From Octopus vulgaris (Eukaryota), in contig OX597821.1 of NCBI GenBank assembly GCA_951406725.2, positions 30,380,001 to 30,444,000 of the forward strand: 64,000 bases of DNA, in the 5' to 3' direction. Each line of letters starts with the position of its first letter. Within the stretch, counting starts at the first letter, position 1. A program made the translations under genes and the position numbers. Positions 9,649 to 64,000 of the stretch are shown here, one piece after another. The notes beneath the pieces were generated by a model that worked only from the letters and a program-made list of their open reading frames with translations, was not told where the DNA came from and ran no database searches.

Positions 9649-9686
<38 letters not shown>

Positions 9687-9691
<5 letters not shown>

Positions 9692-10003
9692 TATTATAAA
9701 AGGCAGATTTTATCTGCCTCCCTTTGAGAGTTATACAAATCTACAATATAGGATTTCTTCAATTACAATTTACCTGGCATTTTTAAGAGTACAATGCATC
9801 GCGTCATGCCAGGTCCAGTTTTTAAAATTTAAACTCCAATTAAGCAAAATTTACAGAAAACTCACATTCTGGTGTGTGTGTCAAATGCTTTTCTTAGTCT
9901 GGTTTACACCACACGCAAACGCACACACACAGTGGGCAACGAATAAAATGAAAGTAAATAGAGACAGAGTGATTTGAGGAAGACTAAAGTGAAAGTATTC
10001 TGT
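9687..10003 (+). mobile_element. 5' fragment of the non-autonomous Helitron found at 11527
   Basis: Starts TC after (TA)n; ~315 bp nearly identical to 11527-11837. Confidence 0.8.
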
Positions 10004-10887: not shown

Positions 10888-11526
10888 TCTATATATATAA
10901 AACTGTAGTTGTGTGAGTGTCTGTCCCCTTCGATTTAGATTCCTAACTACTCCCACATTTTGCGGTACAGTTTAACCAAATTCGGGTAGCTTATAGTCGT
11001 GATTCATATCGAGCCCGTCTGAATATTAGCGCGCGTCTACGATGAGTCTACGATTTTAAAAATAATTTAACATCATTTTTTATTCCATTTTAATGCATAA
11101 TTTTTCGTGTGTCGATGGCGGCGGAGTTGGCGTCCACGCTCACACCTGCACCTGTGGGGAAGGGAGTGTAAGGAAATCAACGTCGTAATGCGTTGTCAAG
11201 GAGACCAGTGTTCTTTTAGAACAACGACTTCATGGCTTGAAGACACCAAAACAGAAATGGCTAAGAAAGCGTCTACATGAGTCTACGATTTAAAAAAAAA
11301 TTTACCATCGTTTTTTTTCCATTTTAATGCATTTTTTCGCTATTATATAAGGGAAGTAACTCTCTAAAAATGTCTACGATGAGTCAACGATTTTTAAAAA
11401 AAATTTACCATCATATTTTTTCCATTTTTAATGCATTTTTTGCTATTTTTTGGCTATAACTCTCTAAAAAATGCTTATATAGTTATTTCCCTTACAAACC
11501 CGAGCAACGCCGGGCGATACTGCTAG
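10888..11526 (+). mobile_element. Non-autonomous Helitron A
   Basis: A|TCTATATATATAAAA 5' end; 3' hairpin CCCGAGCAACGCCGGG (11499-11514), then GCTAG|T; no TSD. Confidence 0.85.
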
Positions 11527-13179
11527 TCTTATTATAAAAGGCAGATTTTATCTGCCTCCCTTTGTAACTTATAGAAATCTACAATATAGGATTTCTTCAA
11601 TTACAATTTACCTAGCATTTTTAAGAGTAGAATGCATCGGGTCATGCCAGGTCCAGTTTTTAAAATTTAAACTCCAATTAAGCAAAATTTACAGAAAACT
11701 CACATTCTGGTGTGTATGTCAAATGCTTTTCTTAATGTGGTTTACACCACACGCACACGCACACACACAGTGTGCAACGAATAAAATGAAAGTAAATAGC
11801 GACAGAGTGATTTGAGGAAGACTAAACTGAAAGTATTTAAACCACTACTCAAAAAATAAAAAAACACAGCAAACAGAAACAAATAAATACATAACGATTT
11901 ACTCCTCACACAATTTCTTCAATTAGAGTTTACCTAAGATTTTTCAAAGTACTCCATTCGGTCATGCCATAATATATTTCTTTCAATTTCACCCCCAATT
12001 AAGACAAAATTCGAGAAAACTCAATATTTTAACATTTCACTCCGAAAGCATTGATGTACATGTGTGCGTGCGTGAGTGTGTGTGTGTGTGTGTTTGATGG
12101 GTTGTGCGACACAGAAAGTGTGGTGTGTAAGTGAAGTGCTTTTGTTAGTGTGTGTAAAGAGACAGACAGAGTGAAAGACAGAAATAACTGAACTTTTTTA
12201 TTCACTTTTTGTAGTGAGTGACTGAGAGAGAAAAGAGAGAGAGGGTTATGTATGTATATATGTATGTATGGCTTCAGTGACACACACACACAAAAACACA
12301 TACCTACGTACACCTAAAGCACGCACACACACACACACAAGCGGAGCGCGAACTTCAAAATTTTGGTAGTATTAATTTGCGAGCGTACTTCTAAGCGCGC
12401 GTAATTGAAAGTTTTCACTATGATATCATCACGTGCGAAAAAATTCGAAGGGTTTTGAACAATTGAGATACAGATGTCACGCCTGTATTGAAACCATTGC
12501 TAAGCTGCCGTAATTGCTTAATTAAGACTTTGTTTAAATTGAAAGGGGCAAATATGTGACGAGGTTGAAAAAAAATACCCCAGAAAAAAAAATGTACTGC
12601 TGGTATTTATATAATTCACTACTATTTTGCTACAATGTCATGAAAAAGAAAAATTTAGGTATGTAAATCGAATTCGCCACCCCCTTTTCCCCGTTCGCGT
12701 TTGTGTAAAAAAAATTATTATTTAAGTTTTAAAAATTATTTACTTTGTTCAAAAAATATTAATATTAATTAATTTTCAAGAATTATTTAATTTTATTCTG
12801 TAAAATAGTAATTAATTCATTTATCTGTAAATCCGCGAGGTTGTTACTCAGGCACCTAGAATGGTAACCTTCAACTAACACTATCTCCTCCGAGACCCTG
12901 CGGCGCAAGTTGACCAAAATTGAGAGTATGGTAGAAGAAGGGTTGCTCTTCCTTCCGTAGAACATAAAATTCAAATCGGACCATGTTAACACCAAAAATT
13001 ATTTACATCAAAAAGATGCTTTTTTCTATGAAAATCCCTATTTTTTACGATTTTTTCACTGCTGTGTCGCCACTTTTCGGTGTATTTCGACCAGAAAAAT
13101 GTTCACAAAATTTTTACTTTTCAAAATTACAATTCCAGCGGGTCGAAACAAACCCGAGCAACGCCGGGCGATACTGCTA

Positions 13180-19699: not shown

Positions 19700-21660
19700 G
19701 TTTGAGTGTTATAAATAAGATAGTAGGTATAAATACTCTAGACATTCTTGTTATGCATTACACCTTCAGCATAATAAAATGGAAATTTAGTGAATTGGAA
19801 AGCTTAGATAGAAAGAAAAACAAAACGGAAACTGCTGACAGCGTTGCGAAGATACAATACCAAAGCTAATATACATAGAATTGACCTACCTCTCACACAA
19901 GTTGTGCTGGGTATTATACAAATAGCGAACTATCATAAAATAACACAAGTAAGATAGAAAAATGGAAGCAAGTAAAGGGAAACTGAAAATTACAATAAGG
20001 AAAACAGTTCTTTCTATTCTCCATAAATAAAGACATGAGTAAGAACAAGCGAGGCAACAACTACATTGAAATAATGCAGTCAGAGGAGAACAGCATAACG
20101 TGAAAGGTTGTAAAATAAGCAAATATAAAAATCAAAATGAATTTATAAACTATGTTAACGAAAAACTGAAGAAAAAGAACAAACCCACGGCCAATATCCT
20201 GCAAAGCTCGACAGAGAGGTAATAAACTAAAGTGAAAGCCAACAATTGTTGAAAGCTCTGTTATAATTACAGAAAGGGAATGTCTGATACTAACCACCAT
20301 AAAGCCAGAACTAAGATGATTATATAGTAAAAGGTATTAGCATCAAGTACAAACTACGTAGCAAGTGCAATGAAAAGCTGACCATATTATCTTAGGCAGT
20401 CCGGTCCTTGTCAGGTCCTATATATGTGAACTGGCAAATGTGCAAGAAATGGCACAAAAATTTGCCAAACGGTGCACAACAAAAATTCAATTCTACACGT
20501 CTTAAAAAGAATTCTATAAACTAACGAAAAGGAAGATATGTGACTCGTCTAAATATAGGTATCAAAAACAGGAACAAAGATATACAGGGTTAATAAACAT
20601 CTCATGTGTACTAAACAGCGCGAAATCAAGTCAAATATGTCCAGATTGAGGGACAGGGAAAGTGAAATAAAAAGTTTGTTGCTGATGCCTCAGCATGGCA
20701 AATATATGGCCTGTATCAAACAAGATGCTTTTTACTAGAAGCACACCCATCAGTGACTACCTAGCTTAGGTCTAAAGGCAGAGATCAAAGACTTCAACTT
20801 ATCTGTTGAAGATCAAAACTTATTAACCCGGAACTACCAAACCAATATGATTAAGAATGGAGTAGATACAAAATGCTGATTCTGCAATGAGAAAATTGAG
20901 ACGGCAGAGCTTTAATATTTAGCACCAGTAGACTATAAATCAACATGACGAAGTTGACCAATATCTACACTGGTTAATATATCGGTATCATAAAATCAAA
21001 ACTTTTGACAAGTGGTATGGTTCGAAGGCGACGAACTGGTGGAAACGTTAGCACGCTGGGCGAAATGCTTAGCGGTATTTCGTCTGCCGTTACGTAGTGA
21101 GTTCAAATTCCGGCGAGGTCGACTTTGCCTTTTATCCTTTCGGGGTCGATAAATTAAGTACCAGTTACGCACTGGGGTCGATGTATTCGACTTAATACCT
21201 ATGTCTGTCCTTGTTTGTCCCCTCTATGTTTAGCCCCTTGTGGGTAATAAAGAAATAGGTATGAGCATGACTATTCGGCTTAACTGAGGGAGAAAATGGA
21301 GCGATTCTTTAGGACTTCCCTGTACGTAAAGATTGAATCATTAAAGCAAATAAGGCGGGTATTATTGTAAAAGTTCAAAACATAGTTTGTATTTTGAGTG
21401 AGGTGAGCATTCCTTGTGATCATAATATTGCAGCAACAGAATTTGACAAGCTCAAGGAATATTATAATTTGCTCATTAAAATAAGAAAAAATAAACTGGT
21501 AGCATCTCATGGCAGTTACGGCACCAATAATTATAGGAGTACTTGGAATGTTCAAGAAGGGAACTGAAAATTATTTTTAAATGATCCCTTGTTTACTATC
21601 CCTACAACAAGGGCAAGACATTATTTTAACTGGTACGTTAAAAGCATTAAGAAGAGCAGA
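19700..21660 (+). mobile_element. R4/Dong LINE 3' half, decayed and interrupted by a SINE
   Basis: ELESLDRK..RKLLT, PKANIHRIDLP, HGKY, LKAEIKDFNLSVEDQNLLTRNY..KC*FCNEKIET (CCHC region), HDEVDQYLHWLI, DFPV..IKANKAGIIV, APIIIGVLGMFKKG. Confidence 0.75.
21020..21257 (+). mobile_element. Nin/Deu-domain SINE inserted in the R4/Dong element
   Basis: Full head, core and tail; GGTATG on both sides; the LINE reading (KWY|EH) resumes after it. Confidence 0.9.
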
Positions 21661-22439
21661 GTTGCTCGTCCTCTCTTTTACTCTCTTTTACTTGTTTCAA
21701 CCATGTGACTGTGGCCAAGCTGGAGCACCGCCTTTAGTCGAGCAAATTTAAATTATTTTACATGAATTTAGTTGATTTGGTACATTAACAATCACATACG
21801 CCTGAAACTTTATTTCTATGCCTGGATTATGCATGCATTACATATTTGGCCCCAAACTGTTTATGAGTACCTAGATTCTACAATCTTAACTTTAATCTTT
21901 AAGAAAATTGAAGACGATGGACAAGTCAGTTATGTACATAGCATAAAGTACGAGATATAGTTTCAAGAAAAAACGTTGTGTAAAAAGAACAACATAGGAT
22001 ACAAGTGAAAGTGAGGAAATGAGAGAGAAAGAAAGAGATGTTTGAAAGAAAGAGATGAGCGGAAATATAGATATACTGATGAAATTATAAGGAAAATAAA
22101 ACTAACCAAAAAGAGAAATATGTTGTAAAGAGTGGGATAACGAAAGATAACTGAGCTTTATGGAGAAATGTGTGTTTGTTAATTGGGAGTGTGAAAGCTA
22201 ATAACGTTTGTGAGAATTTAAGTAAAAAGCTGAATGCAGAGATAAAGATGGAAGCATGAAAAATAGTAAGGTGGATGAAGTCTTCTTCAACGAGGTTGAT
22301 GGTTACAAAGAGAAACAAAGAGACTTAAACGGCTTGTGTTTATTACAATATACTTATTTGAAGACGTCTACAGTAAATGATTGAATTATAACGTTTATGG
22401 TGAAGTAAATATACGGAGAGACACATATATATCTCTCTT

Positions 22440-22822
22440 CTTTCTTTTTCTTTTTACTTGTTTCAGTCATTTGACTGCGGCCATGCTGGAGCACCGCCTT
22501 TAGTCGAGCAAATCGACCCCGGCACTTATTCTTTGTAAGCCCAGTACTTATTCTATCAGTCTCTTTTGCTGAACCGCTAAGTGACAGGGACGTAAATACA
22601 CCAGCATCGGTTGTCAAGGAATGCTAGGGGGACAAACACAGACACACAAACATACACACACATATACATATATACGACAGGCTTCTTTCAGTTTCCCTCT
22701 ACCAAATCCACTCACAAGGCATTGGTCGGCCCGGGGCTAAAGTAGAAGACACTTGCCCAAGATGCCACGCAGTGGGACTGAAACCGGTACCATGTGGTTG
22801 GTAAACAAGCTACTTACCACAC
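22440..22822 (-). mobile_element. CORE-like tRNA SINE (third family)
   Basis: Reverse copy of 40154-40528: CTTGGGCAAGTGTCTTCTACT core and GGCGGTGCTCCAGCATGGCCGCAGTCAAATGACTGAAAC tail. Confidence 0.85.
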
Positions 22823-23050
22823 ATCCAATACATACAAACATATATATATATATAGATGGAGCAAGAGGTTTTGTCAGTGAACAGGTCGCGGTCTCAAAGC
22901 GATGAAAATATTTTGACAAATTAAATTTAAATGTTGAAGTGAATCTAACGGTTTTGTGTGTTTCTTAAATGGGTTATAAACACCTTCCACACTGAAGTTG
23001 TTTTCGTTCCAGCACACGATCTCAGATCAAGACACTCGCTATGCAAGCAC

Positions 23051-24729: not shown

Positions 24730-25177
24730 GGATCTTTTCGGTTTGAACGGCAGTTTTTTCTAGCGGTGTCATATGGAATTGCCACCCATAACTATGACCC
24801 TAGTATCGATCTATTGCATTTCAATCTGTTCTAGGGTTAGGGCTAGTGTTAGGGTTAAGGTTAGGGTTAGGGTTAGGGTTAGGTGTGGGAGGAAGGGTAT
24901 CTTTTTTTCTTCACAAATGTAAATAAGCCCATTCTGTTTCTTAAACGGACATATTCATACGGCACAGAATGTTTTTAACTCAATAGACGCCACTGATTGG
25001 TTGAAATTGCAGAAATTGAAGGAAAAAACAACAAATATCTTACAAACTATAGAATTTTCTCAAGAAAGCCAAGAGAAAAAGACGTTTTATAAACACATTC
25101 TACCAGTATACGAAGTTTAAATTTTTTTAGTTACCTAGAAATTATGTTAAAAACTGCCGTTCAAACCGAAAAGATCC
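24730..25177 (+). mobile_element. GGATC-MITE copy 3 (expanded TTAGGG tract)
   Basis: Both TIRs; flanks TTTGAATG/ATTGAATG. Confidence 0.95.
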
Positions 25178-26585: not shown

Positions 26586-27402
26586 TGTTATACTGAACTT
26601 CCTCATATACATACATAAATAGACACTCACACACACACACATACACACACACACGTATTTATATATGTATGTATGTATTTATGTATGTATATCATTCACT
26701 TTATTTCAAGATTTCTTGCTAATACAGAAATAACCGTTTTCTAACCTAGATCCAAGACTCCTTCATGGAATTTCAACACCAACAGGGTATGTATGTATGT
26801 ATGTATGTATGCGTGTGCACTGGCCATTGCATTTTAGCAATTGCTGTCCAAATTATACAGTATGTTGTGATACATGTTGCATCTCGAAATGAAAGTTTTT
26901 GGAATTATATTTGCATCAGCAAGAGTAAGAAGGGTGAGATATCAGAAATATTAAATGTTTTCTGAATTCGATCACTGATCGGCCTTATATGAATCAGAAG
27001 TTGTAACTCAAAAAAAACCTAATCTTTCATTGTCTAGTAACGGTGATTCGGAGTGGACTGATTTATCGTGTCCACTCTAGAGCAGTATGTGTTTGTTAAT
27101 ATGTGTTCTCATCGGTATACTTATATATAAGCACGAGCGTTAATATAAATGCAAGATTTGTCTGTGTGAATGTGTGTATGTATTCTTCTCTGCTTTGGCA
27201 GTATACATACTAAAATTGAAATGATACATGATATAGAGAATATTATCATAGCCAAGGAGCAAGGATGATATGATCATTTGTGATACATTACAAATTCTCA
27301 ATATTGCTCTCGTAGCACGGACACAGATTGCAGGCTGAAAAAAATGAAAACTTGAAAGAGGATGAATACAGACTGTCATCAGTAAATATTTTGCCATGGT
27401 CA

Positions 27403-29160: not shown

Positions 29161-29948
29161 CTTAATTTGTCGAACATGTATATTTTAGCTAACATTTTAA
29201 TTGCCAGCATCAGTACCCGGTACGCATTTAATATACGGTAGGTTAGGGTAGGGTATTAACATATTTTAAATGAGGCGGGTGGTCGATATGGCAGTAGAAA
29301 TATCTATAGGGGGTTGATGTTGAAGGAGAAGTAGCTAGGGTGTGTGATAGTGAAGAAGTAGCTAAAGGGGGTCGAAGCGGAAGGAGTAGTGCTAAAGGGA
29401 GTGGGGTCGTTGGTCGCAAAATTTAGGCAACCCCTTGTCTGATGCAATATTTTTCATTTTCTATATTTGCTGTTCCTCACTTTACGTTTCGATTCTTCTG
29501 AGGTTTTCAAATTGATTCCATCAGAAAGATTTTCGGGCAGAGGGATATATGTAGTTGGAGAAGGGGCATATATGTGGAATTGAAATGCCTGTGTTTATGT
29601 ATATAATCTGGTTGACTTGTGTGGGTAGGGTCTCTTTGACATTATCATAGGTTCTATTGTTACTGAAGTTGTGATTTCTGGCTGTTCCTTTGGTGATTCT
29701 GTACTTAGAATTCTGATGTATCTGATAACTTTTCTCCTATTGTTGTTGATGTTTCTGTTGTGTTGAAGGAGCTGGAGGGCAATTCTTCAACCTTTTTTCT
29801 GTGATGCACGTAATATTCATCGTTTGTGTCACCATAAATATGGCATTTTATCTTCTGCCTTCAATTGCTATGAATAACTGAAAGCTATTTCAGAGTTTGA
29901 TGAATTCAGGGATGGTTTTGTTGTTTTCCTTATCTGTTCGAGAAACTA

Positions 29949-31216
29949 TCAGGCTGAGTAAAAAGTAAGCAACACTTTGAACCACGAAGAATTTGTACCG
30001 GATTTTTGCAGAGTTGAAATTATCTGATAATACAGACATAGACTTACACAAATGCATCAGTAAATTAACATTGATATTTTTTTCATCGTTGTTATAATCA
30101 TCTGAAATGGAACTGTCAAAGGGCGATATTCGAGCAATTTTGCTCTTCAACTTCAAAGAAGGACGTAAAGCAGTTGAAACTACTCGCAATATCAACAGAA
30201 CATTTGATGAGGAAATGACAAGTGAGTGGTCAGCTCGAATATGGTTTAAACGATTTTGCAGTTTAGACCTCAGCCTTCAAGATCGTGAGCGTAGTCGACG
30301 CCCATCTGTCATCGATGACGGTCAAATAAAGACCGTCATTGAGAAGGATCCACGTAAAACAACTCGAGAACTGGAAAGAAGAACTTCAAGTTAGCCAGAA
30401 CAGAAAACTGCCTGCAAGCATTTGCATGCTATTGGAAAATCAAAAAAGCTCGACTAATGGGTACCACACGATTTGATTGAAAATCAGAAAATGCGCAGAT
30501 ATGTAATTTGCTCGTTGCTTCTTCTCCGTAACCAGACCGATCCATTTCTGGACCGTATTGTAAGTTGCGATGAAAAGTAGATTCTGTGCAATAATAATAA
30601 AAAAAGACGTTCTTCGCAGTGGCTGGACCAAAATGAGGCATCGAAAACTCTCACTAAAATCGAGCTCTTCAAAAAGAAGGTCATGGCGACTGTTTGGTGG
30701 TATACTGTTAGGCTCATGCACTATAAATTCTTAAAACCCAGAAAATCCATTACTACAGAACATATTACCATGAAATTAACAAAATCAACGAAAAACCGAT
30801 ACTTCTCCGTCCCAGACTGGTCAGCATGAGGGTCAATCCTTCTTCATGACAATGCTCGACCACACGTTTCACTAACAATGCTCCGGAAGTTGAGGGAACT
30901 TGGCTACGAAGTTCTTCCCCACTCATCTTATTCCCCAAATCTTTCTCCTACCGACTACCACATCAAGCACCTTGATGGTCTCCTGCGAGTGAATGAGTTC
31001 AAAAATCAAACCGCTGCTGAAAATGGGTTGAAAGTGTTCATCAGCTCCAGAACCCCAGATTTCTATGTTACCGGAATAAAACTTGTACCTCGTTCGCAAA
31101 AACGTGTTGATTATAACGGTACTTTGATAAACAGCATTTCCGCATTGTTGAAATATATTCTGATGAATTTCATGTTTCAATTCGTTGCTTACTCAAAACT
31201 GCTTTACCCAGCCTGA
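29949..31216 (+). mobile_element. Near-full-length mariner (DD34D), transposase pseudogenised
   Basis: TA|TCAGGCTGAGTAAAAAGTAAGCAAC left TIR and GTTGCTTACT..TTTACCCAGCCTGA right TIR; ATG at 30107; WVPHDL, IVSCDEK, LHDNARPH and YSPNLSPTDYH motifs with stops and frameshifts. Confidence 0.92.
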
Positions 31217-34659: not shown

Positions 34660-35200
34660 AACATGTACTCCATTGCAATAATATAAACTTTCATTTAATC
34701 CTGATATCCTTGGCCTGAAGTGTGGCCTGCAGTATAAATCCCGATTGGCTCTTTACCACTTATACGTTTGTGCCCACCATGAAAAATATGTAACCCGAAT
34801 TTCATCTACTCCTTTCTTTAACACTTGTATTCTTATTCGCCCATCCAGCAAACCTAGTCGCCTACCGTGAAATATAAAAAGAACTTCCCTCAACTTATCG
34901 TACTTTGATACGAAAAACGTCCACCACAATCCTTTCATCTCAATAAGTCACTATTGTCCCTGATAGTTGATTTTTATATTTCCTACGGATTGCTTGAAGC
35001 TAACTTTCTTCCTCCACCTCCGGTCACTTCATCTTGAACCATTAATCATTAAACATTTGTTTTCTCTGTTTCTTTTTTACCTCCTAATGCTTCCTGTCTG
35101 TTGTAGAGCCGTGGCTGAAACGTCAAAGACTTTCCCCTTTTTCCCGAGCGTTAACTTAATACGCGTACTTATTGTTCATTCACCTGCCTTTTGTTTTCTG
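34660..35200 (+). mobile_element. Degraded Penelope-like 3' end (GIY-YIG trace plus pLTR-like segment with hammerhead-like motif)
   Basis: LKCGLQY trace near 34715; CTGTTGTAGAGCCGTGGCTGAAACGTCAAAG at ~35098-35128; downstream sequence homologous to the reverse of 41270-41400; ends in (TA)n. Confidence 0.55.
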
Positions 35201-35276
35201 TAAATTTGAATTATATATATATATGCATGTGTGTATATATGCATGTACGTGTATGCATATATATATATACACATAC

Positions 35277-36339: not shown

Positions 36340-36439
36340 TATACTCGTTTGCATTTACGTCAGTTTTTCTATGCTAGCATAAGTTAGACAAATACATTAT
36401 TTCACAGTCTCAAAGATACTAATCATACGGACAACATAA

Positions 36440-38369
36440 TAAACAGGAAAAATACGATCAACACCACGGCTCCAAAGAAGCCGACAAAGGTAGTACTATA
36501 GTTCTTATGGACACACATTTTTAGAAACACCTAGTACTCTTCTTACTAAACGACAACTCTTTCTATGAAATAATCACTAACTATAAACAACAAAAAACAC
36601 TCAAAAACCTCCCCACTCTTATACTCCAACACGGTCAAGGGCTCATGGAAAAAGAAATGGATTACATCACTAATTGCAAATAGAAGCACAGGCTCTTCTA
36701 TGGCCTCCCTAAATTCCATAAAAACAAATCCATCACCGAAGCCTGTAAACTCTCATCTGACATCCACATCAACATCAAGGCACCGGAAGATTTAAAAGTA
36801 AGACCCATTATAGCTGTCACCTCCTATGAAACACACCGAATAAGCAATTTCCTGGTCATACTTTTAAAGCCTTTCCCCAGTCACATCAAATTTTCGTTAG
36901 AGATGATCTTGGCATTCTCAACCACCTCCCGAAAACAACCAACGAGGAGGCATTCTTGGTTTCCTTTGATGTTATCAACCTCTATACCAACATCCCACAT
37001 GAATATGGTATTGAGGCAATTTATTTCCGGCTGAAGAAACACCCAGAAGCATTTCCTAACCGCATTATTAAGACCTTCATTACGGAATCACTGAAGTTCA
37101 TTCTGAAAAACAATTACTTCCTATTCGAAACACACACACTGCCGTCAAAAATGTGTTACCGCGATGGGTACCAAAGCTGCACCAGTCCTTGCGAACCTCA
37201 TAATGGGTTTCTTCGAACTATCACTTCATGAGATATCACGCCAGAAATTTGGAGACCTTTTCCATATCTAATTAATGGAAAACTGGAAAAGATACTAAGA
37301 CGATTGTTTCATCATATGGAAATAAACCTTGTGAAAAACGTCTGGAATTCAAACCACACTTAACAACATACATCCCAACATGCAATTCACTATGGAATTC
37401 AGCAAACTTCATCTCCCTTTTCTTGATCTCCTAACTATAAAACCACCTGAGAAACAAATCACAACAGACATCTACCACAAACCTACATACTCACAACAAT
37501 ACCTCCTCTTTAGTTCATGCCACCAAAAACACACCAAGATGAATATCCTCTTCAACTTAGCTAAAAGCATTTGCACCATTGTCTCTGACCCAACCACTCG
37601 AGAAATGCGCCTACAAGACCTAAAAAGAACACTGTTAAAACGCCAAAATCCCTCCACACTCATAGACTATGGAATAAAACGTGCCATGGATCTCGACAAT
37701 AACATACTGAGAACCATTCAATACAGTAATACACACAACCTGAAAACACTTCCATACATTTCCACGCAAAACCCCCAAAACATCGAAACATACACCACAA
37801 TCATACAAAACCTCCCCTTACTGACCACGAACCCAAAAATAAATAATATTATCAATACACATAAAATCCTTAAATATAAAAGGCAACATAAATCCTTCAA
37901 AAAGCTCTTAACCAATGCCAAACTACACACACAACATCCACCCCCATTAGTTAAAAAATGTGCACGCCCTAACTGTGTTACCTGCCCCTACCTACGTGAA
38001 GTCTCTGAAGTTACTTTCAAACAAGGAACAAAGTTTAAAAATCAAAACTAACTTCTCTTGTTCCTCCGAGAACCTCATTTACGTTCTTACATGCGCAGGT
38101 CGCCAACACAATTACATCGAACAGGACAGACGAGTCTTTCTTCACGCAGAAGTGTAGCAGTACATAGAGAACAGATAAATCTCCCACAATACCGTCAAAT
38201 TCTACTCAGTGGCCACATAGACTCTTGTACTAGAAATAAAAATCCCAAATTTCTTATATTCCCTTTATATCAATGTAAAGACGGAATCTCTACACAAGAA
38301 AGAATAAACAAAGAGAATCTTTTCACTGAAAATTTCCAAACGCTTCTTAATATGCAAACCCCACGGTGA
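36440..38369 (+). mobile_element. Penelope-like element: reverse transcriptase plus GIY-YIG endonuclease, pseudogenised
   Basis: ADKGSTIVLMD, YGLPKFHK, RPIIA, SFDVINLYTNIP, MGTKAAPVLANLIMG, WKRY*DDCF, QFTME..LPFLDL, YHKPT, C..C..C linker, CSSENLIYVLTC..HNYI. Confidence 0.93.
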
Positions 38370-39326
38370 CAGTATTCCTTTTTCAAGCCCACCTAATTAA
38401 ATACATATACATTTGTTACTTGTATTTCTAAGAACAGACATAAGCGTCCTCTTGACAAAAAATCCAGCATTCCAATTAAAGAGTATAAAACCCACAGAAT
38501 TGTCTTCCCTTATCCATAGGAACTAGCTAACTCCTACCCCGTTTCCTGTTTGACTCATAAACATCCAACCTTTTCGAGCAAAACACTACAATGAAACACA
38601 TGCATCCTAATCACTATGATGTATTGGTATATTTATTTATTTATTTCTGTATATATTTATTATTTTTTTGAAAAACACTTTAATATTTTTTCCTCTTTCT
38701 TACATTCAAAAGTTGCCATGCAATGAAAGCCGTTTTGAAACCCTTTTCAATCTTTCTTACACTCATTTATATTAAAATTCGCTTTCAGTTTAGCATTCTG
38801 CCTTATTACTATTATTTTTTTCCTTTCCGATAATTTTTCCACGTGTAGTGAATACAACCCCACCATTTACTGACTTATATGTATAAGTATATATATATAT
38901 ATTATATTTTGGACTAATCGGTATATGTAAGTTAGCGTGTTGATGTGTTGAGTAAAGCACTGGCACGGTTTCAGCTACTTAGTGTCACCTGCTCCAGTTG
39001 GGACATATTTCCGCTGGATCTACGTCAGAATTTCCGCGGTGTTAGTTGTGATAATAATCAATTAATGAAGCAGAGGATGGATTTGGTACTAGTCTTTCAG
39101 TCTATTTCCATCTTCTCTTATTATATACAAATATGTTTTCCTCTAACAAGTACATTCAGAAAGCCCTGGTCGACCCGGGTCTATAACTCTCTCACTCCAA
39201 ACAAACGTACAGTGAAACTGTAGCGGACCTATTTGACTGAGAAGTGCGGAAGCGAGCTCTCTCGTTAAAGACACAAGCAAATGAAACTGCTTTCATATGA
39301 TGTGCATCTAAACCAAAACTCATACG

Positions 39327-40153: not shown

Positions 40154-40528
40154 AGGCGCAGGATGGCTGCGTGGTAAGTAGCTTGTTTACCAACCACATG
40201 ATTCCGGGTTCAGTTCCACTGCGTGGCACCTTGGGCAAGTGTCTTCTACTATAGCCTCGGGCCAACCAAAGCCTTGTGAGTCAATTTGGTAGACGGAAAC
40301 TGAAAGAATCCCATCGTATATATGCGTGTGTGTGTTTGTCCCCCTAGCATAGCTTGAAAACCGATGCTGGTGTGTTTATGTCCCCGTTACTTAGTGGTTC
40401 GGCAAAAGAGGTACAAAAGAATAAGTCCCGGGCTCGAGTTGCTCGATTAAATGCGGTGCTCCAGCATGGCCGCAGTCAAATGACTGAAAGAAGTAAAAGA
40501 GTAAAAGAGATTAAAAGAGAGTAAAGAG
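40154..40528 (+). mobile_element. CORE-like tRNA SINE, full length
   Basis: GGCGCAGGATGGCTGCGTGGTAAG..GGGTTCAGTTCC..CCTTGGGCAAGTG; (GTAAAAGA)n tail. Confidence 0.88.
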
Positions 40529-41168: not shown

Positions 41169-41258
<90 letters not shown>

Positions 41259-41362
41259 TATATATATAAGGGAGAGTTTACGAAAAAACAACAAAAGACG
41301 AAGACTGGTGGTGTACAAAACAAACAGATGTATTAGTATGACGCTCAGGAATAGAAAAAAGT

Positions 41363-41398
41363 CTTTTACGTTTCGAGCCTTCGCTCCTCTACAGAAAG
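41363..41398 (-). ncRNA. Atypical minimal hammerhead-like motif
   Basis: Minus strand: CUUU CUGUAGAG GAGC gaag GCUC GAAA CG UA AAAG. Stems I and II, GAAA and a palindromic stem III are present, but the core deviates from CUGANGA. Confidence 0.5.
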
Positions 41399-41497
41399 GG
41401 ACACATAAAATAAGGAGAGAGAGAAGGAGAGAAAAAGGGAGACAAAAAAAGAGAGAGAAAAGGAGAGAAAAATATATATCCGTATATATGTATATAC

Positions 41498-41579
<82 letters not shown>

Positions 41580-41708
41580 AAAGTCAGGCAACCGGTTGCT
41601 TAGCCACATTTCTGTTTTCTACAAATAAGACTCCACATACGACATATCCCTGTAATTCAAATATGCAAAAGAGAAGGAAGAAATGACGAAAACAATGTCT
41701 AACGGTTA

Positions 41709-41775
41709 TTTACGAACGCGTTTCTAGATTAGGAATATATTATAATATCAATCCCATGTCCTTCGTCAGCGTAAA
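41709..41775 (-). ncRNA. Type I hammerhead ribozyme (minimal, stem II imperfect)
   Basis: Minus strand: UUUACG CUGACGA [long AU-rich stem II] GAAA CGCG UU CGUAAA; perfect 6-bp stem I, palindromic stem III, GUU site. Confidence 0.65.
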
Positions 41776-42154
41776 CCTCCACTAAAATAGATTTATCAAA
41801 TTCTACGTACCTCCACCTCTCGATCAGGTGACATCGAAATAGTGGAAGATAGCAAGCATAGACCAAACCTATATAGACGATTGAATCCGTAAATTTTCCC
41901 TCCAAAAGTTTACCATGCGTATTACAAAAATAGTTCCTTAGAGATAGAAACTATGGGTTGTCGTAAGGGAGTGAAAATTCCAATTAGTAATATAATAAGA
42001 GTAAATAATAGCTTTAATTTTTTTTTATTTATATACAAAATATATATTGAACTTTTATAGAAGTTCCTACCGTTAATGGTTATATTTACATGCCGAAATC
42101 TACCAGTAAATAATTGTTGTTTTTTTAAAAACCATTAAAGCTATTATTTACTCT

Positions 42155-42236
<82 letters not shown>

Positions 42237-42428
42237 CTAATGTGGGATAACATTTATTTCGGGAAAAAATTTTTATCAATGGCCAGCATATCAAAAGTGC
42301 CTTTAAATGTTAAATAAGGGCAAACGAAAAATTGTAATGCCAAATATGCCGAAAAAAAGACAAAAAATTATCAATAACCCTTATAATTTATGCGTCTCGA
42401 AACAAACCGATAGAACTTTCTAAAAAAT

Positions 42429-42499
42429 CGTTATTACCGTATTGGTCCCAATTTCGGGGTTAATTCATACGAATTGTCCCCTCTTCAGCGATAAATACG
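42429..42499 (-). ncRNA. Type I hammerhead ribozyme, canonical core
   Basis: Minus strand: CGUAUUUAUCG CUGAAGA GGGG acAAUUCguauGAAUUaa CCCC GAAA UUG ggac CAA UA CGGUAAUAACG; all conserved core nucleotides, three stems, AUA cleavage triplet. Confidence 0.85.
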
Positions 42500-42999
42500 T
42501 GAGATATAAGTGAAATACTTACTCATACCCATGGTAAAAGCAAGCACTAAGTCCTGTGCAGACCTAGGTCTGTGTGTGTGTGTGTGCTATCTTATATATA
42601 TATATATAAACATGGATAGAGAGATGCAGGCAGGCATACTTTCACAAACGTGCAAACACACACACGCATATATACACATACACGTATATAAATCGGCTTC
42701 TTGCATCGAACAAGAGTGTCTCCCAGGTTGAATAAAAATTCAACGCCTTAAGCCTAATAACATAAATATATAATCGATTGCAATGATAGACACTGTTTAG
42801 TAGAAACAGGCTATAAAAATCTAATCTAATATAATATAAAATACGTGTCGGGTGCGTGTTCCCGCATGTTATTCCTAATACAAAAACTGGTACAAACTAT
42901 GTTACTTTAGGATCTCTCTCTTCCTCTTTCTTTCTTTCTTTTTTACTTTCTTTCTTTATTTCTCTCTCACTCTCAAATGTTCTGCTATTATTCATGTCC

Positions 43000-43300
43000 T
43001 GTGCATATGAATCTTCTCCACAACCCTCTAACCTGTGCTGTTCTCTTCATTACGGCCTAATATCACCCAGAATCATCATTCTTCTCCCGCCCCGTCTTCT
43101 CACCTGTATTAACTCCCGTCTGTCACAGCGCGCAGAAGCCCTCTTCATCTTATATGTCCTATCCATCTTGATTTCCTTCCCTAGCTGGTATCCATCAAGA
43201 ATTACTTCTCTCCAACTCTCTTAAGCACTCTTTCGTTGCTCTCGTGGTCCGTCCAGTAGATCCTCTCCATTCGCATAGAAAATTCCATTTAACAACCCTT
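43000..43300 (-). mobile_element. RTE-clade LINE 3' fragment
   Basis: RMERIYWTDHESNERVLKRVGEK*..GRKSRWIGHIR*RGLLRAVTDG..RRRGGRRM. Confidence 0.75.
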
Positions 43301-43792: not shown

Positions 43793-45471
43793 TGGAAGAG
43801 AGAAATCAGAGCAAGACTTGCCACAACCAAAAAAGGAATTCAACAAACACAAAACACTGCTCCCTAAAGGCCTGGAGCCTGACCCGCAAAAGAACCTGGT
43901 GAAAAACTAAGTATGCTGTGTGCTCATCTGTGACTCAGAAACAATGGACCGTCAACAAAAACTTCGCGATGCATTAGTATAAATAAAGAGAACAGATTTG
44001 TTTGATTTCTCACTCGGACTCCACTCCAGCAAATACTCAGTCAGAATTTTCAAACAAATTATAAAGAACATAATATGTTTAGCTCGTAAATACAAGAGGT
44101 TTTATTCGGATATAAATTTGGAATACTTTGAAGGAATTCCCAACGCTTGCAGTGTGTGATATTTTGAAGATGGTCTCATGCACTTTAGAGTTTCCAGATG
44201 AGGAGAACTGTCAAAAATAAACGATGGCTTCTCTGTCAGATTCCTATTACGTGATACAGGATTTTACTAAGCATCATACAATATCTTCAGAAGAAAAAGG
44301 ATCAATATCAAAACCAGATGGTAACGATATATAAATGAAAAGTTTCATGAGAACTCAAAAATATCATGTATATTTCTTCACTGCCAAAACTCTGTACTTT
44401 GCACTCCATAGTATGTTTACGAAAGTAGCTCTTAGTGTTTTTTAATGAATTAAATGATGCCTCTTCCTGATGAGGCATGACCAGAAATTTCCCAGCATTC
44501 TTTCAATGTATACATGTTTTTCAACAGTATAAATACTTCGCAATAATTAATAAAAATCTTTTGAGCACCGTTAATTGAAAAACGTACTTCTTAATGGTTA
44601 ATTGCATTCACGACACTTCAAAGTGTTTGCTGATTATATATATATCTGCGCGCGCGCGCGTGTGTGTGTGTCAAAAATTAAGTTTAGTTAAGATATGTTT
44701 GCGACAAATTTCTACTGCTTATGTCCATCTCATTGACAAGAGTCCACAAACTCCAAACATCGATGTCTAGCATTCCCGATGGAACAAATTGGGTGTTTTC
44801 ACGCCTTTTGCCATAAGAGAGATATTCTCTCCACAGCAATTGCAGTGCTTTTGTCTATTAGCATTTGAAATACGTCGCAAAGAAATTTTAGCTAACCTAA
44901 ATAATACTTATGCTAAACACTACTTAGCGCTAACATTTTGTCAAATATGTAATATGCATGTGTTTCATTTTGTGTGTGTTTGTGAGTGCTAACTTATGTG
45001 AATTAAACAGAGCCACTTTTGATTTAACTGAAATTTCATTATGAAGCTTTTACGGTGATCCATGTTCACTGGTGTTGAGGGGAATAAGAAGAATAGTTGA
45101 AACATGTATAAGAATAAATCATTCATTGCCGTTTCTTGTACGTAAAATTTCAGAAGAAAAATTTGGATATGTACCTGCAACATACCTATTTAAGCGTTTT
45201 TCCGCTTTACATCACTTTTTAATTGCCGCTGACTTACCCGTCACTATCTGTGTAATTTATGATTTGTGTACGTTTTATAGAAACTTCAAATGTATTTCGA
45301 AGTTGCACTGCCGTTTTGTAAATAGCGCCGGAAGGACGTGCTAATGCATAAAACTCTTGAAAGTTTATCTTGCAAAAAAAGTTTACAGTTCTTTGGTGAG
45401 TTATTTTGTAGCCATAAGCCTAGAATATATTGCTTTTTAATGGGTATTTGCTATAGTGGTGAAATACGTAA

Positions 45472-46738: not shown

Positions 46739-46969
46739 GCTACCAATTATTGTGTGTATGTAGGTGTGTTTATATTACGTGTATATATACAACATATATA
46801 TACATGTGTGTATGAATGTATGTATATATATATATACTGTTATGTGTGGGGAGAGCCATTCTCTTTTAGTGCTTCAACACACGAACTCATATTGGTTTGC
46901 AAGATTCTTGCAAACCAAATCCAAAAACCAATATATATATATATATATATATACATGTGCGTATGCATG

Positions 46970-47013
<44 letters not shown>

Positions 47014-47039
47014 CATATATATGTTATATATATGTGTTC

Positions 47040-47335
47040 TTGTATTTGTTTCAGATCTTTTGACCGCGGCCATGCTGGAGCACCGCCTTTAACCGATCAA
47101 ATCGACCCTAGGACTTACACTTTGTAAGCCTAGTACTAATTGTATCGGACACTTTTGCCGAACCACTAAGTTTCGTAGATATAAACTCACCAACATCGGT
47201 TATCAAGTGATGGTGAAGGGACTATAGTAGTGAAGGTGCTATAGTAGAAAACATTTGCCCAAGGTGCCACACAGTGATACTGAACCCGGAAGTATGTGGT
47301 TGGTAAGCATGCTACTTACCACAGCCACTCCTGCC
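47040..47335 (-). mobile_element. CORE-like tRNA SINE
   Basis: Reverse copy of the 40154 family with an internal deletion. Confidence 0.82.
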
Positions 47336-55499: not shown

Positions 55500-57860
55500 T
55501 GGTAAAAATCTTGTCCGTTTTGTAAAGGACACGGCAATATATTGCATATGATTGCGTGAGAGGAGATTTCGCAGAATCTTTCCTCGGGCAAGCGTGTGTC
55601 TAGGACGGGATGTCCTTTGGAACAAATGATTTGTTGATTTGACCCCGAGGTTCACAGGAGGCATGTCATTCATATACAAAGTTCGTTCTTCAGTTTCTAG
55701 GTCATCTGGAACAAGAAAACGGTGCGTCGTAAAAAATCTCCGCCGAGGTGTATCACAAGCCCTCCTTGACTGCTGAATGGCAGCCCAGAAGAACAATAGG
55801 GAGTTATTTACTCCAACGGCCTGAGTCAGGATAGGCGTGCAGCGCGGCCTCTAATTGTCGATGGGATCGTTGCGCCATGCCATTAGAAGCTGGATGATAA
55901 CTTGTGGTATTATGCGCTTAGCGGCGATAATATTTGATAGCTCAGTGAATAGCTATGACTCATCTTGCCGACCACGATCTGTTGTGATGATAGCAGGAAT
56001 ACCGTAGCACGATGTCCAACCTGCTACCAGGGATCGCGCTACAATTTCCACAGAGATATGAGTTAGGGGTTTAGTTTCCGGGGATGTTTTCGGTTTGAAC
56101 GGCAGTTTTTTCTAGCGGTGTTATATGAAATTGTCACCCATAATTATGACCCTAGTATTGATCTATTGCATTTTAATCTCTTTTATGTTTAGGGTTAGTT
56201 AGGGTTAGGGTTAGGGTTATGGTTAGGGGTTGGGGGAAGGGTATCTTTTTTTCTTCACAAATGTAAATAAACCCAATCTGTTTCTTAAACGAGGGACATA
56301 TTCATACAGCACAGAATGTTGTTTACCTCAATGGACGTCAGTGATTGGTTGAAATTGCAGAAATTGAAGAAAAACACAACAACAAATATCATACAAACTA
56401 TAGAATTTTCTCAATGAAGCCAAGAGAAAAAGATATTTTATAAACACATTCTACCAGTATACGAAGTTTAAAATTTTTTAGTTACCTAGAAATATATGTT
56501 AAAAACTGCCGGTCAAACCGAAAATATCCGCATCGGTCACTGCATAAAGCAATCAACAAGTTACACTTGCTGATGATGCTGCTGTTTCAAAACTGCGCCG
56601 ACCGGTGTTTTCCATACGTCAACGACCAACGAAAGCTGGACATCAGGCACAAAGAAGGTAGGTAAAGAAGCGTTAGCTAACAATTGTTTAACATTGTTAA
56701 ATGTCACTAGCTGAGCCGAGTCGGGAAAAATAGCTTCATCCTTCGTTTTTCTGTTTTGAAGAAGATCAGACGGGGCGAATATGAAGTCTGCACATTGTGA
56801 GATAAGACGCAGATAATAGTTCAGAAGATTTAGGAACTGTCTAAGCTGTTACAAAGGAGTAGGTGGAGGAATATCTTGAAGAGCTTTAATTTTCTCTGGA
56901 AGTGGCGATATGTCGTCAGCATTGATGACGTGGCCCAAAAAGACGAGGAAGCACCAAAAGCACACTTCGCAGGGTTGATGCGAACTTGGCATTTTTTAAA
57001 ACGTTCGAAGAGCTGAAGCAGGTCAGCTACATGTTCCTCCGTGGAAGATCTCGCGACAAGGAGGTCGTCGATATAAACATATACGAAGTCTAAATCACGG
57101 ACGACCTCATCCATAAAACGCTAGCTACATTTGGTAGTTGCATTTTGTGCTAGCTGCATTTCATAATCCACTCGAAAAGGCGTGGTAGCAGCAGTCCTCG
57201 ATATATCCTCTGAGTGTACTGAAATTTAGTGGTAAGCTTTCACCAGGTTCAATTTTGAGAACAGTGTACGTGGAGCGAAGAAGCGAAATCTAGTATGTGC
57301 AAAATGAGATATCGAATCGGAGCAGTAATGGAATTTAATGTTCGGAAATCTCCAGTAGGATACCAGCCACTGGAGTGTTTTGGGATCAAATATTAGGGAC
57401 TAACCCACGGGCTGGTAGAAAGTATTATAATTCCTTACTACAGCTTATGCCGTAGTTTTTGCCGTTTACATTATTTCGGAAGAGAGCCGACGGGGACGAA
57501 CAAAAATAGGACCGCCCTTAGTCTCGATGAAATATTTGGCAGGGTGCGTGGGAGCACTCGCTTCAAAGTTTAAATTGGTTAACTCCGGAAAGGAATGTAT
57601 GTGTGACTCATGTGGGTCGTTCAAAGTCGCAATAAAAAAACTGGACAAATCAAGTGGGTTAATGATCGACACCCAGGAATTGAAAGGTCCGTAGTTTTGT
57701 CTAACAATTGACCTGCACGCATATCCACCAAAAGATTAAAGTGGTGCAAGGAAATAGCGCCTTGTCTGAGATATGGTAGATCCGCGACGACGAAAAGCCA
57801 TGCAAAATTTCTGCGAAGATTCAGATTCGGTAGGTATGCCAGAATGTTTGACAACTTGCA
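55500..57860 (-). mobile_element. Gypsy/Ty3 pol remnant (protease, RT, partial RNase H, integrase)
   Basis: NFAWLFVVADLP, RPRRLS, SPWVSP, TGDFRTLN, FSKLNLVKAYH, VYVYIDDLLVA, GIPAIITTDRGRQ, TTSYHPASNGMAQRSHRQL. Confidence 0.92.
56082..56529 (+). mobile_element. GGATC-MITE copy 8, inserted in Gypsy integrase
   Basis: Both TIRs; the integrase reading LVDCFMQ*P | PETKPL continues across it. Confidence 0.93.
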
Positions 57861-63754: not shown

Positions 63755-64000
63755 TGCTATCTTTTACTTGTTTCACTCAGTAGACTGTAGCTATAATGGG
63801 GCACCACTTTCAAGAAATTTTAATCGATTGGATCGACCCTAGAATTTTCTTTAAAATTGATACTTATTCTATCAATATCTTTTGTTAAACTGATTTTTTA
63901 CAAGGACATAAACACACCAATACCGGCTATGAGGCGGTGGTGGTGGACAAACATAGACACAAAGACACACACACATATACGAGGGGCTTCTTTCAGTTAC
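63755..64000 (-). mobile_element. CORE-like SINE 3' part, degraded, cut by the window edge
   Basis: CTTTTACTTGTTTCA..GCACCAC..CTTATTCTATC..ACACCAATACCGG resembles 22440-22700. Confidence 0.7.

Follow-up and report, generated by a model that had tools for sequence, protein, structure and literature searches.

Three same-strand hammerhead motifs in a (TA)n cluster of Octopus vulgaris as probable Penelope-like element ends gathered at a shared insertion target

Introduction

Within about 1.2 kb of Octopus vulgaris contig OX597821.1, three short units follow one another between (TA)n tracts, and each carries a hammerhead motif on the minus strand. The question raised by this arrangement is whether the row works as one device, in which a common transcript would be cut into RNAs that circularise and move, as a preliminary description of the locus had proposed, or whether it is the trace of separate insertions into one target. 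We addressed it in a stretch of 64,000 nucleotides (assembly GCA_951406725.2, positions 30,380,001 to 30,444,000 of the contig), hereafter the window, numbered from its first nucleotide.

Organization of the locus

Followed along the plus strand, the locus consists in turn of (TA)49, U1 (203 bp), (TA)52, U2 (414 bp), a 173-bp inverted-repeat element, (TA)39, U3 (340 bp) and short TG and TA runs. The features used in the analysis are the following:

41171..41268, no strand: (TA)n tract at the 3' end of U1 (TRF, 49 copies)
41269..41471, minus strand: U1, 203 bp, with a pyrimidine-rich 5' part, a minimal hammerhead and a 98-nt U-rich tail
41363..41398, minus strand: minimal type I hammerhead motif of U1, predicted cut after 41367
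41472..41575, no strand: (TA)n tract, spacer between U1 and U2 (TRF, 52 copies)
41576..41989, minus strand: U2, 414 bp, with 220 nt upstream, a hammerhead and a 139-nt tail; predicted rod
41709..41775, minus strand: hammerhead motif of U2, predicted cut after 41715
41990..42162, no strand: MITE-like element, TA-flanked, outside U2 (blastn self-match)
42158..42235, no strand: (TA)n tract at the 3' end of U3 (TRF, 39 copies)
42236..42575, minus strand: U3, 340 bp, with 87 nt upstream, a hammerhead and a 204-nt U-rich tail
42429..42499, minus strand: hammerhead motif of U3 with intact core, predicted cut after 42440
35040..35211, plus strand: diverged relative of U1 with a decayed core and an 87-nt tail reaching a TA-rich tract
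36453..38880, plus strand: broken Penelope-like element (PLE) with RT and C-terminal GIY-YIG

Read on the minus strand, the three units share one plan, in which a non-coding lead of 77-220 nt is followed by the hammerhead, a U-rich tail of 98-204 nt and a TA tract. The distance from cut site to tract is 98 nt in U1, 139 nt in U2 and 204 nt in U3, with 39-45% U, and TA tracts terminate all three units and also the U1 relative at 35.1 kb. The predicted cut sites lie 348 and 725 nt apart, which agrees with the spacing of about 350 and 725 nt given in the preliminary description. All three units are low in GC and have no open frame of note, and no open frame starts within them; no gene was identified over the cluster, and the 64-kb window contains no tRNA gene able to drive its transcription.

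The element at 41990-42162 has 36-bp terminal inverted repeats, 34 of 36 positions being identical in a blastn self-match, is non-coding and lies between TA dinucleotides; by its target rule we take this MITE to be of the Tc1/mariner type. Because it is a separate element, the middle unit measures 414 bp and not about 580 bp. The locus had been described as three apparently unrelated units of 200-600 bp, and of this account the separation by TA tracts stands, but U2 and U3 look related and the middle unit resolves into 414 bp plus the 173-bp MITE. A weak partial match to the MITE was seen at 21314-21394.

Structure of the hammerhead motifs

A descriptor scan and a reading of the strand both recovered the three minus-strand motifs reported earlier (41363-41398, 41709-41775 and 42429-42499). 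In U1, stem I measures 4 bp (41398-41395 with 41366-41363), stem II likewise measures 4 bp and is preceded by one extra nucleotide, helix III is the palindrome ACGU, and the core, CUGUAGA, carries U rather than A at position 6. U2 combines a 6-7-bp stem I (41775-41770 with 41714-41709), an intact CUGACGA core and a palindromic ACGCGU helix III with a predicted stem II that consists of an A.A mismatch and 3 bp, an internal loop and a 5-bp extension, and this is the lowest-energy fold computed for the segment. U3 has an intact core (CUGAAGA/GAAA), a 6-bp stem I, a 4-bp G-C stem II with an extension and a helix III of 4-5 bp. Set against the type I pattern, CUGANGA...GAAA...UH with three helices, U3 agrees in full, U2 matches throughout the core but opens stem II with the A.A mismatch, and U1 departs at position 6. 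Judged from their sequences, U3 is a candidate monomer-active ribozyme and U1 a candidate natural position-6 core variant.

To gauge how often such motifs arise by chance, we took the 58,022 bases outside microsatellites, shuffled them 150 times with dinucleotides preserved, and scanned the results with descriptors that had been fitted after the motifs were seen. A strict descriptor that accepts U3 and a U6-tolerant one that accepts U1 and U3 gave 0 matches in the 150 shuffles, and the U2 descriptor gave 0.013 per shuffle. The loosest descriptor, which takes all three, gave 0.15 per shuffle (maximum 2) against 3 in the real window, all within this 1.2 kb. In a separate loose scan, three of the four matches were U1-U3, located 98-204 nt upstream of a TA tract. 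The Rfam hammerhead models, which the preliminary description had put forward as a check, did not lend support, as no hammerhead family was found either at gathering or at E<=10.

The fold stability of the isolated motifs was ordinary (z from +0.9 to -1.5). For U3, placed in 68 nt of context, the hammerhead fold came to no more than 0.8 kcal/mol above the minimum, and there the predicted ensemble probabilities of stems I and III were 0.38 and 0.14, falling to 0.02 or less in longer contexts. Within whole units, the hammerhead fold costs 4.3 kcal/mol in U2 and 3.8 kcal/mol in U3.

Relationships among the units

After the cut site, 8 of 10 bases are identical between U2 and U3, an agreement whose frequency in the window is 7e-4. 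The alignment of their tails is weak; equally good ones came from 14 and 16 of 1000 shuffles and from 7 and 4 of 818 real windows. From these shared bases and tails, U2 and U3 are probably distant relatives. A relative of U1 lies at 35093-35162 on the plus strand (73% identity over 71 nt; its score of 66 was reached by 0 of 200 shuffles). Its core has decayed but also has U at position 6, so that two of two copies share this base, and its 87-nt tail ends at TA. Within the 64-kb window, U2 and U3 had no further copies.

Outside the window, exact-pattern scans gave 0 matches for U1 in viral contigs and metagenomes and for U3 in metagenomes, genomes and viral contigs; since these collections are mostly microbial, the blanks are uninformative on copy number. 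At least 24 sequencing runs were listed, of which 21 contain part of 41269-42580 and none contains half its words; four organism labels had shares of at least 0.2 among the listed runs, and none of the runs listed as containing it was of RNA. A protein search with the open minus frame of U1 gave no candidate, and the best score of the 73-aa open frame of U2 against the ESM Atlas, 0.78, was counted as a blank. Going by the accessible part of its description, the O. vulgaris repeat library (PMC13282606, on Zenodo) may already contain U1-U3.

Origin of the units

We consider it probable that U1-U3 are independent, 5'-truncated, hammerhead-bearing PLE 3' ends that piled up in one TA tract. Two PLE lineages would be the source, one for U1 and another for U2 with U3, and each unit would have been copied separately into the same TA microsatellite and shortened at its 5' end. 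Every insertion would split and lengthen the tract, leaving a target for the next one, and a TA-targeting MITE would have joined the same growing tract. In the parent elements the hammerhead would help to process tandem transcripts, as a homodimer for U1 and U2 and perhaps as a monomer for U3, so that at this locus U1 and U2 are without a partner and probably silent. We infer that the units accumulated at a target they have in common and do not form one device for processing RNA.

This sequence of events follows what is described for PLEs elsewhere. EN-bearing PLEs nick AT-rich DNA and their RT starts downstream of the hammerhead, so that every insertion, even a short one, retains the hammerhead and the adjoining 3' sequence; in the accessible text of PMC11167929, purified PLE protein nicks at AT-rich sites, begins RT downstream of the hammerhead and inserts in vitro without need for cleavage. 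In the consulted parts of Craig et al. (2021, PMC8557442), the hammerheads of Hydra-clade PLEs have a helix III of 3-4 bp, and in many of them stem II is accompanied by an extra nucleotide. Their distance from the 3' end is about 35-150 nt, in one case about 350, as computed from the positions listed in file S2. The same parts give (TA)n as the target of nearly all families in that file, including Hydra-1_Obim and three Octopus Naiads, and state that Neptune elements are also thought to target (TA)n. As far as the available portions of the sources extend, minimal PLE hammerheads are mostly single copies from truncated PLEs and inactive as single motifs (PMC4209133), and the majority of PLE insertions are truncated at the 5' end and retain one terminal repeat (Li et al. 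2026, bioRxiv 10.64898/2026.07.22.740005). PLEs also tend to insert beside earlier copies (PMC6765202). In O. vulgaris, PLEs are reported, in a source available in part, to make up 6.83% of the genome in 190 families.

U1 carries the marks of the minimal PLE hammerhead, namely an extra nucleotide after A9, G10.1-C11.1, a 4-bp stem I and a palindromic helix III, and the tails of 98, 139 and 204 nt place all three motifs near a 3' end when compared with the distances of about 35-150 nt (once about 350) in Hydra PLEs. This anatomy and the TA ends support the earlier suggestion that type I hammerheads of the PLE kind sit here in elements sharing (TA)n as a target. At its 5' end U3 has a 14-bp palindrome (42559-42572) of the sort found at PLE inversion junctions, a weak sign given 6 palindromes of at least 14 bp in 58 kb against 2.5 in shuffles. 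Palindromes of 12 bp also occur at 36370-36381, just upstream of the detectable 5' end of the broken PLE, and at 41588-41599, near the 3' end of U2; with 14 such palindromes in 58 kb against 9 in shuffles, they are not significant.

The weak link of the reading as truncated PLE ends is that no unit is tied to an ORF or a published consensus. No RT or endonuclease linked to U1-U3 emerged from a profile built on 64 PLE proteins, from tblastn with 151 or from two C-terminal profiles, and the 77-220 nt upstream of the hammerheads contain no RT and GIY-YIG ORF, lengths that would fit within a 3' non-coding region of 510 nt. Six plus four short motifs of the units are absent from the supplement of Craig et al., and the octopus Hydra and Naiad 3' ends given in its available part showed no match to the units when compared by eye. 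Motifs resembling a PLE C-terminus, picked out by eye upstream of U2 and of the U1 relative, were discarded, as they received no score with the two C-terminal profiles. Two further points speak against PLE ends: U3 has stem sizes (6-bp stem I, 4-bp stem II) that are canonical and of the retrozyme type, and a 204-nt tail that exceeds most Hydra ones; and simple truncation does not predict the U2 rod described below.

The broken PLE at 36.4 kb

The local PLE encodes RT together with GIY-YIG at the C terminus, with a CX4CX2C linker, a motif of the Neptune/Nematis type, in an ORF remnant at 36453-38369. It has several frame changes, and single-frame alignments cross 9-10 stops; being broken in this way, it is unable to supply protein. 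Its non-coding 3' region of about 510 nt ends in a short TA tract and could hold any of the three units, so the absence of coding remnants in U1-U3 is expected. The element lies on the strand opposite to U1-U3, and its comparison with the units showed no similarity (z <= 1.6). Six PLE proteins were looked up, the best named relative being from Mytilus coruscus. Searches of mostly microbial collections for relatives together with their surrounding DNA confirmed 0 of 50 candidate stretches in one case and 0 of 62 in another. A candidate decayed hammerhead at about 38710-38750 (AAAAG/CTTTT around GAAAC) was rejected, having no recognisable core and being missed by the loose scan. The 3' region also has a 22-nt direct repeat (82%) at 38687-38708 and 38744-38765, spaced 57 nt, which flanks this possible decayed hammerhead.

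The predicted U2 rod and a possible retrozyme origin

The alternative that survives best, possible in our view but unlikely, is that a non-autonomous, retrozyme-like family is represented here by solo copies, namely U2 and the probably related U3, with U1 remaining a PLE stub. Tandem masters elsewhere would give rise to a rod-shaped RNA of about 400 nt with the hammerhead on a side branch; this RNA would become circular, and PLE proteins would place it in (TA)n. In favour of this alternative is the predicted fold of U2, a rod of about 340 nt in which 41972-41874 pairs colinearly with 41701-41630 and the hairpins and hammerhead form side branches. The minus strand has 43 pairs with a span of at least 150 nt and a probability of at least 0.8, a count reached in 1 of 152 shuffles and the highest among 232 real 414-nt windows taken from both strands of positions 1-59.7 kb. 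Its MFE has a circular z of -3.3 (0/152) and a linear z of -2.3 (3/152) or -1.9 (3/100), and that of the plus strand is -0.2; a z of -4.9 obtained from 40 shuffles had dropped to these values (-3.3 circular, -2.3 linear) at 152. Where the arms fail to pair, U.U is favoured (7 of 14 mismatches, with none in the opposite sense), which decay of a DNA duplication would not predict. U3 adds its canonical helix sizes and a hammerhead fold that lies close to the minimum in 68 nt. Moreover, the self-pairing of U2 resembles a retrozyme monomer of mussel size as described in the accessible part of PMC7229834, and the lengths of all three units, non-coding and low in GC, fall in the 150-450 bp range of retrozyme monomers.

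Against a retrozyme origin stands that this locus has no tandem or terminal redundancy; the longest internal direct repeat is 8 nt in U2 and U3, and the non-repetitive part of U1 has none of 8 nt. Watson-Crick pairs make up 40 of the 43 long ones, and 30 persist on the plus strand, so the rod is equally compatible with an old PLE arm in inverted orientation that has a tail of 54 nt on one side. The energy of U2 is ordinary among real windows of like composition (37 of 232 are lower), U3 and U1 are not self-paired (z of -1.3 and +0.1) and U3 shows no rod, and the hammerhead fold carries the whole-unit costs given above. The rod statistic was picked after the fold had been seen, among three units, and the p of about 0.01 for U2 is the value before correction. 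Separately, the idea that the 3' end of U3 equals the 5' start of U2 by circular permutation was tried and abandoned, 908 and 754 of 1000 shuffles scoring as well.

In the available text of the Li et al. preprint, retrozymes are themselves argued to be freed PLE ends, so the two main readings differ in degree: a small RNA of its own against the leftovers of a full-length parent. In its complete form, with U2 and U3 as solo copies of an undescribed retrozyme lineage whose rod of about 400 nt has a hammerhead with stem II extended across an internal loop, is made circular from tandem masters and is aimed at TA microsatellites by PLE proteins, and with a U1 family that has fixed U at the nearly invariant core position 6, we regard the proposal as doubtful.

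It is improbable, in our estimate, that U2 is a single old and decayed PLE insertion with an inverted 5' arm, composed of direct and inverted ends and a one-sided tail. This would be a variant of the reading as truncated PLE ends, with which it overlaps although we weighed it apart, and it would explain the rod at the DNA level. The arms are colinear, measuring 74 and 72 nt without a 25-nt hairpin, and 54 nt at the 3' end remain unmatched; copies that are inverted and truncated at the 5' end are typical, as is a one-sided tail of 30-40 bp, and the 30 long pairs retained on the plus strand agree with such an origin. However, the DNA alignment of the arms is weak and gappy (score 52 against 38 +/- 5 in shuffles, maximum 62.5), the hammerhead core and stem I between the arms are intact, and the mismatches are skewed to U.U.

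The proposed joint RNA-processing system

In the preliminary description, cleavage of one read-through transcript at each of the three sites would release RNAs of 725 and 348 nt, which would form circles and be mobilised by the element at 36.4 kb. The spacing does hold and U1-U3 all lie on one strand, but for a palindromic target three insertions on one strand have a probability of 0.25, and both the U1 relative and the PLE lie on the other strand. Stem I strands form 4-7 bp with the partner strand of their own motif but no more than 0-2 bp with those of another; with a dimer-type helix III in U1 and U2, this means that neighbours cannot complete each other. The RNAs between the sites would be chimeras containing 76 and 94 nt of TA run, the longer one also including the MITE. 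U1 is without A6, and changes at A6 lower hammerhead activity, A6C to under 0.1 per min (PMC3088659). The absence of tandem or terminal redundancy weighs here too, and so do the broken and unrelated PLE and the lack of an identified gene over the cluster or a tRNA gene in the window to drive transcription. Minimal PLE hammerheads are inactive as single motifs according to the consulted portion of PMC4209133. With stem I non-pairing, U6 and a broken PLE, the proposal is poorly supported and we consider it highly improbable. Least credible of all is that the motifs are chance matches in AT-rich DNA, a view consistent with the missing Rfam match, the post hoc descriptors and the low ensemble probability of U3 stems I and III, but opposed by 1-3 motifs found where 0-0.15 are expected, by the position of all three 98-204 nt upstream of a TA tract and by the existence of a U1 relative.

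Other repeats in the window

The window holds several further repeats. A dispersed SINE-like repeat at 40158-40510, which we assume to resemble octopus SINEs, has relatives at 22443-22827, 46967-47334, 21672-21745 and 63904-63998, the copies being 72-88% identical. Fragments that by eye resemble the C-terminal part of a LINE RT, presumably of the RTE type, lie at 43000-43290 (minus strand) and 43794-43960 (plus strand) and flank a TA-rich tract of 282 bp. A broken mariner-type transposase occupies 29890-31216, its best match being a SETMAR-named nematode protein (56% identical), and a decayed U6 snRNA copy with a 7-nt insertion (27190-27299, plus strand, 48.6 bits) is likely a retropseudogene. 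Reading frames at 9654-9977 and 11483-11815, about 1.8 kb apart, are near-identical by translation and represent a two-copy repeat, and short interstitial telomere-like (TTAGGG)n arrays are found at 24832-24883 and 56189-56228.

Significance

Our literature search for hammerheads or retrozymes in Octopus or cephalopods returned Craig et al. as the one relevant work and no retrozyme description, and four motifs taken from the window occurred in the text of no paper; the available part of the Craig et al. work already records a TA-targeting, hammerhead-bearing octopus PLE. If U1-U3 are truncated PLE ends the locus matters little, such ends having been described in many invertebrates including octopus, and it adds two uncatalogued lineages. 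The lesson would be that insertions into one common target can produce a row of hammerheads on a single strand, which therefore does not have to represent a cassette for processing. Were U2 and U3 shown to be retrozymes, small ribozyme circles would be extended to this group and tied to a (TA)n-targeting PLE, and the proposal that retrozymes are freed PLE ends would receive a direct test.

Comparison with known systems

The comparisons below refer to the parts of each source that were available. The PAc Poseidon of Anolis (Frangieh et al. 2024, PMC11167929) is the source of the mechanism invoked here, with AT-rich nicking, the start of RT and dispensable cleavage; its hammerhead overlaps the start of the ORF, whereas no open frame starts in U1-U3.

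The minimal hammerheads (min-HHR) of metazoan PLEs (Cervera and de la Pena 2014, PMC4209133) resemble U1 in the extra nucleotide at A9, in G10.1-C11.1 and in occurring as single dispersed motifs, and both U1 and U2 in the palindromic helix III. U1 differs from them in having U at position 6 and a stem II of 4 bp instead of 7-8 bp; a literature search for a hammerhead A6U change returned matches that, judged by title, concern other RNAs.

Animal non-LTR retrozymes (PMC7229834; Li et al. 2026) differ from these units in that the locus has no tandem copies or redundancy and carries three different sequences in place of one repeated. They are alike in being non-coding units (200-414 bp here) of low GC with a type I hammerhead, in the canonical helix sizes of U3 and in the predicted self-pairing of U2.

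Compared with the Hydra-clade PLEs (Craig et al. 2021, PMC8557442), the units have no ORF and do not match the octopus Hydra and Naiad consensus ends, the tail of U3 is longer than most, and stem II of U2 is long and interrupted. These PLEs, including Hydra-1_Obim of Octopus bimaculoides, nevertheless share with the units a type I hammerhead near the 3' end, a U-rich tail and a (TA)n target, a helix III of few pairs as in U3, and extra nucleotides beside stem II as in U1 and U2.
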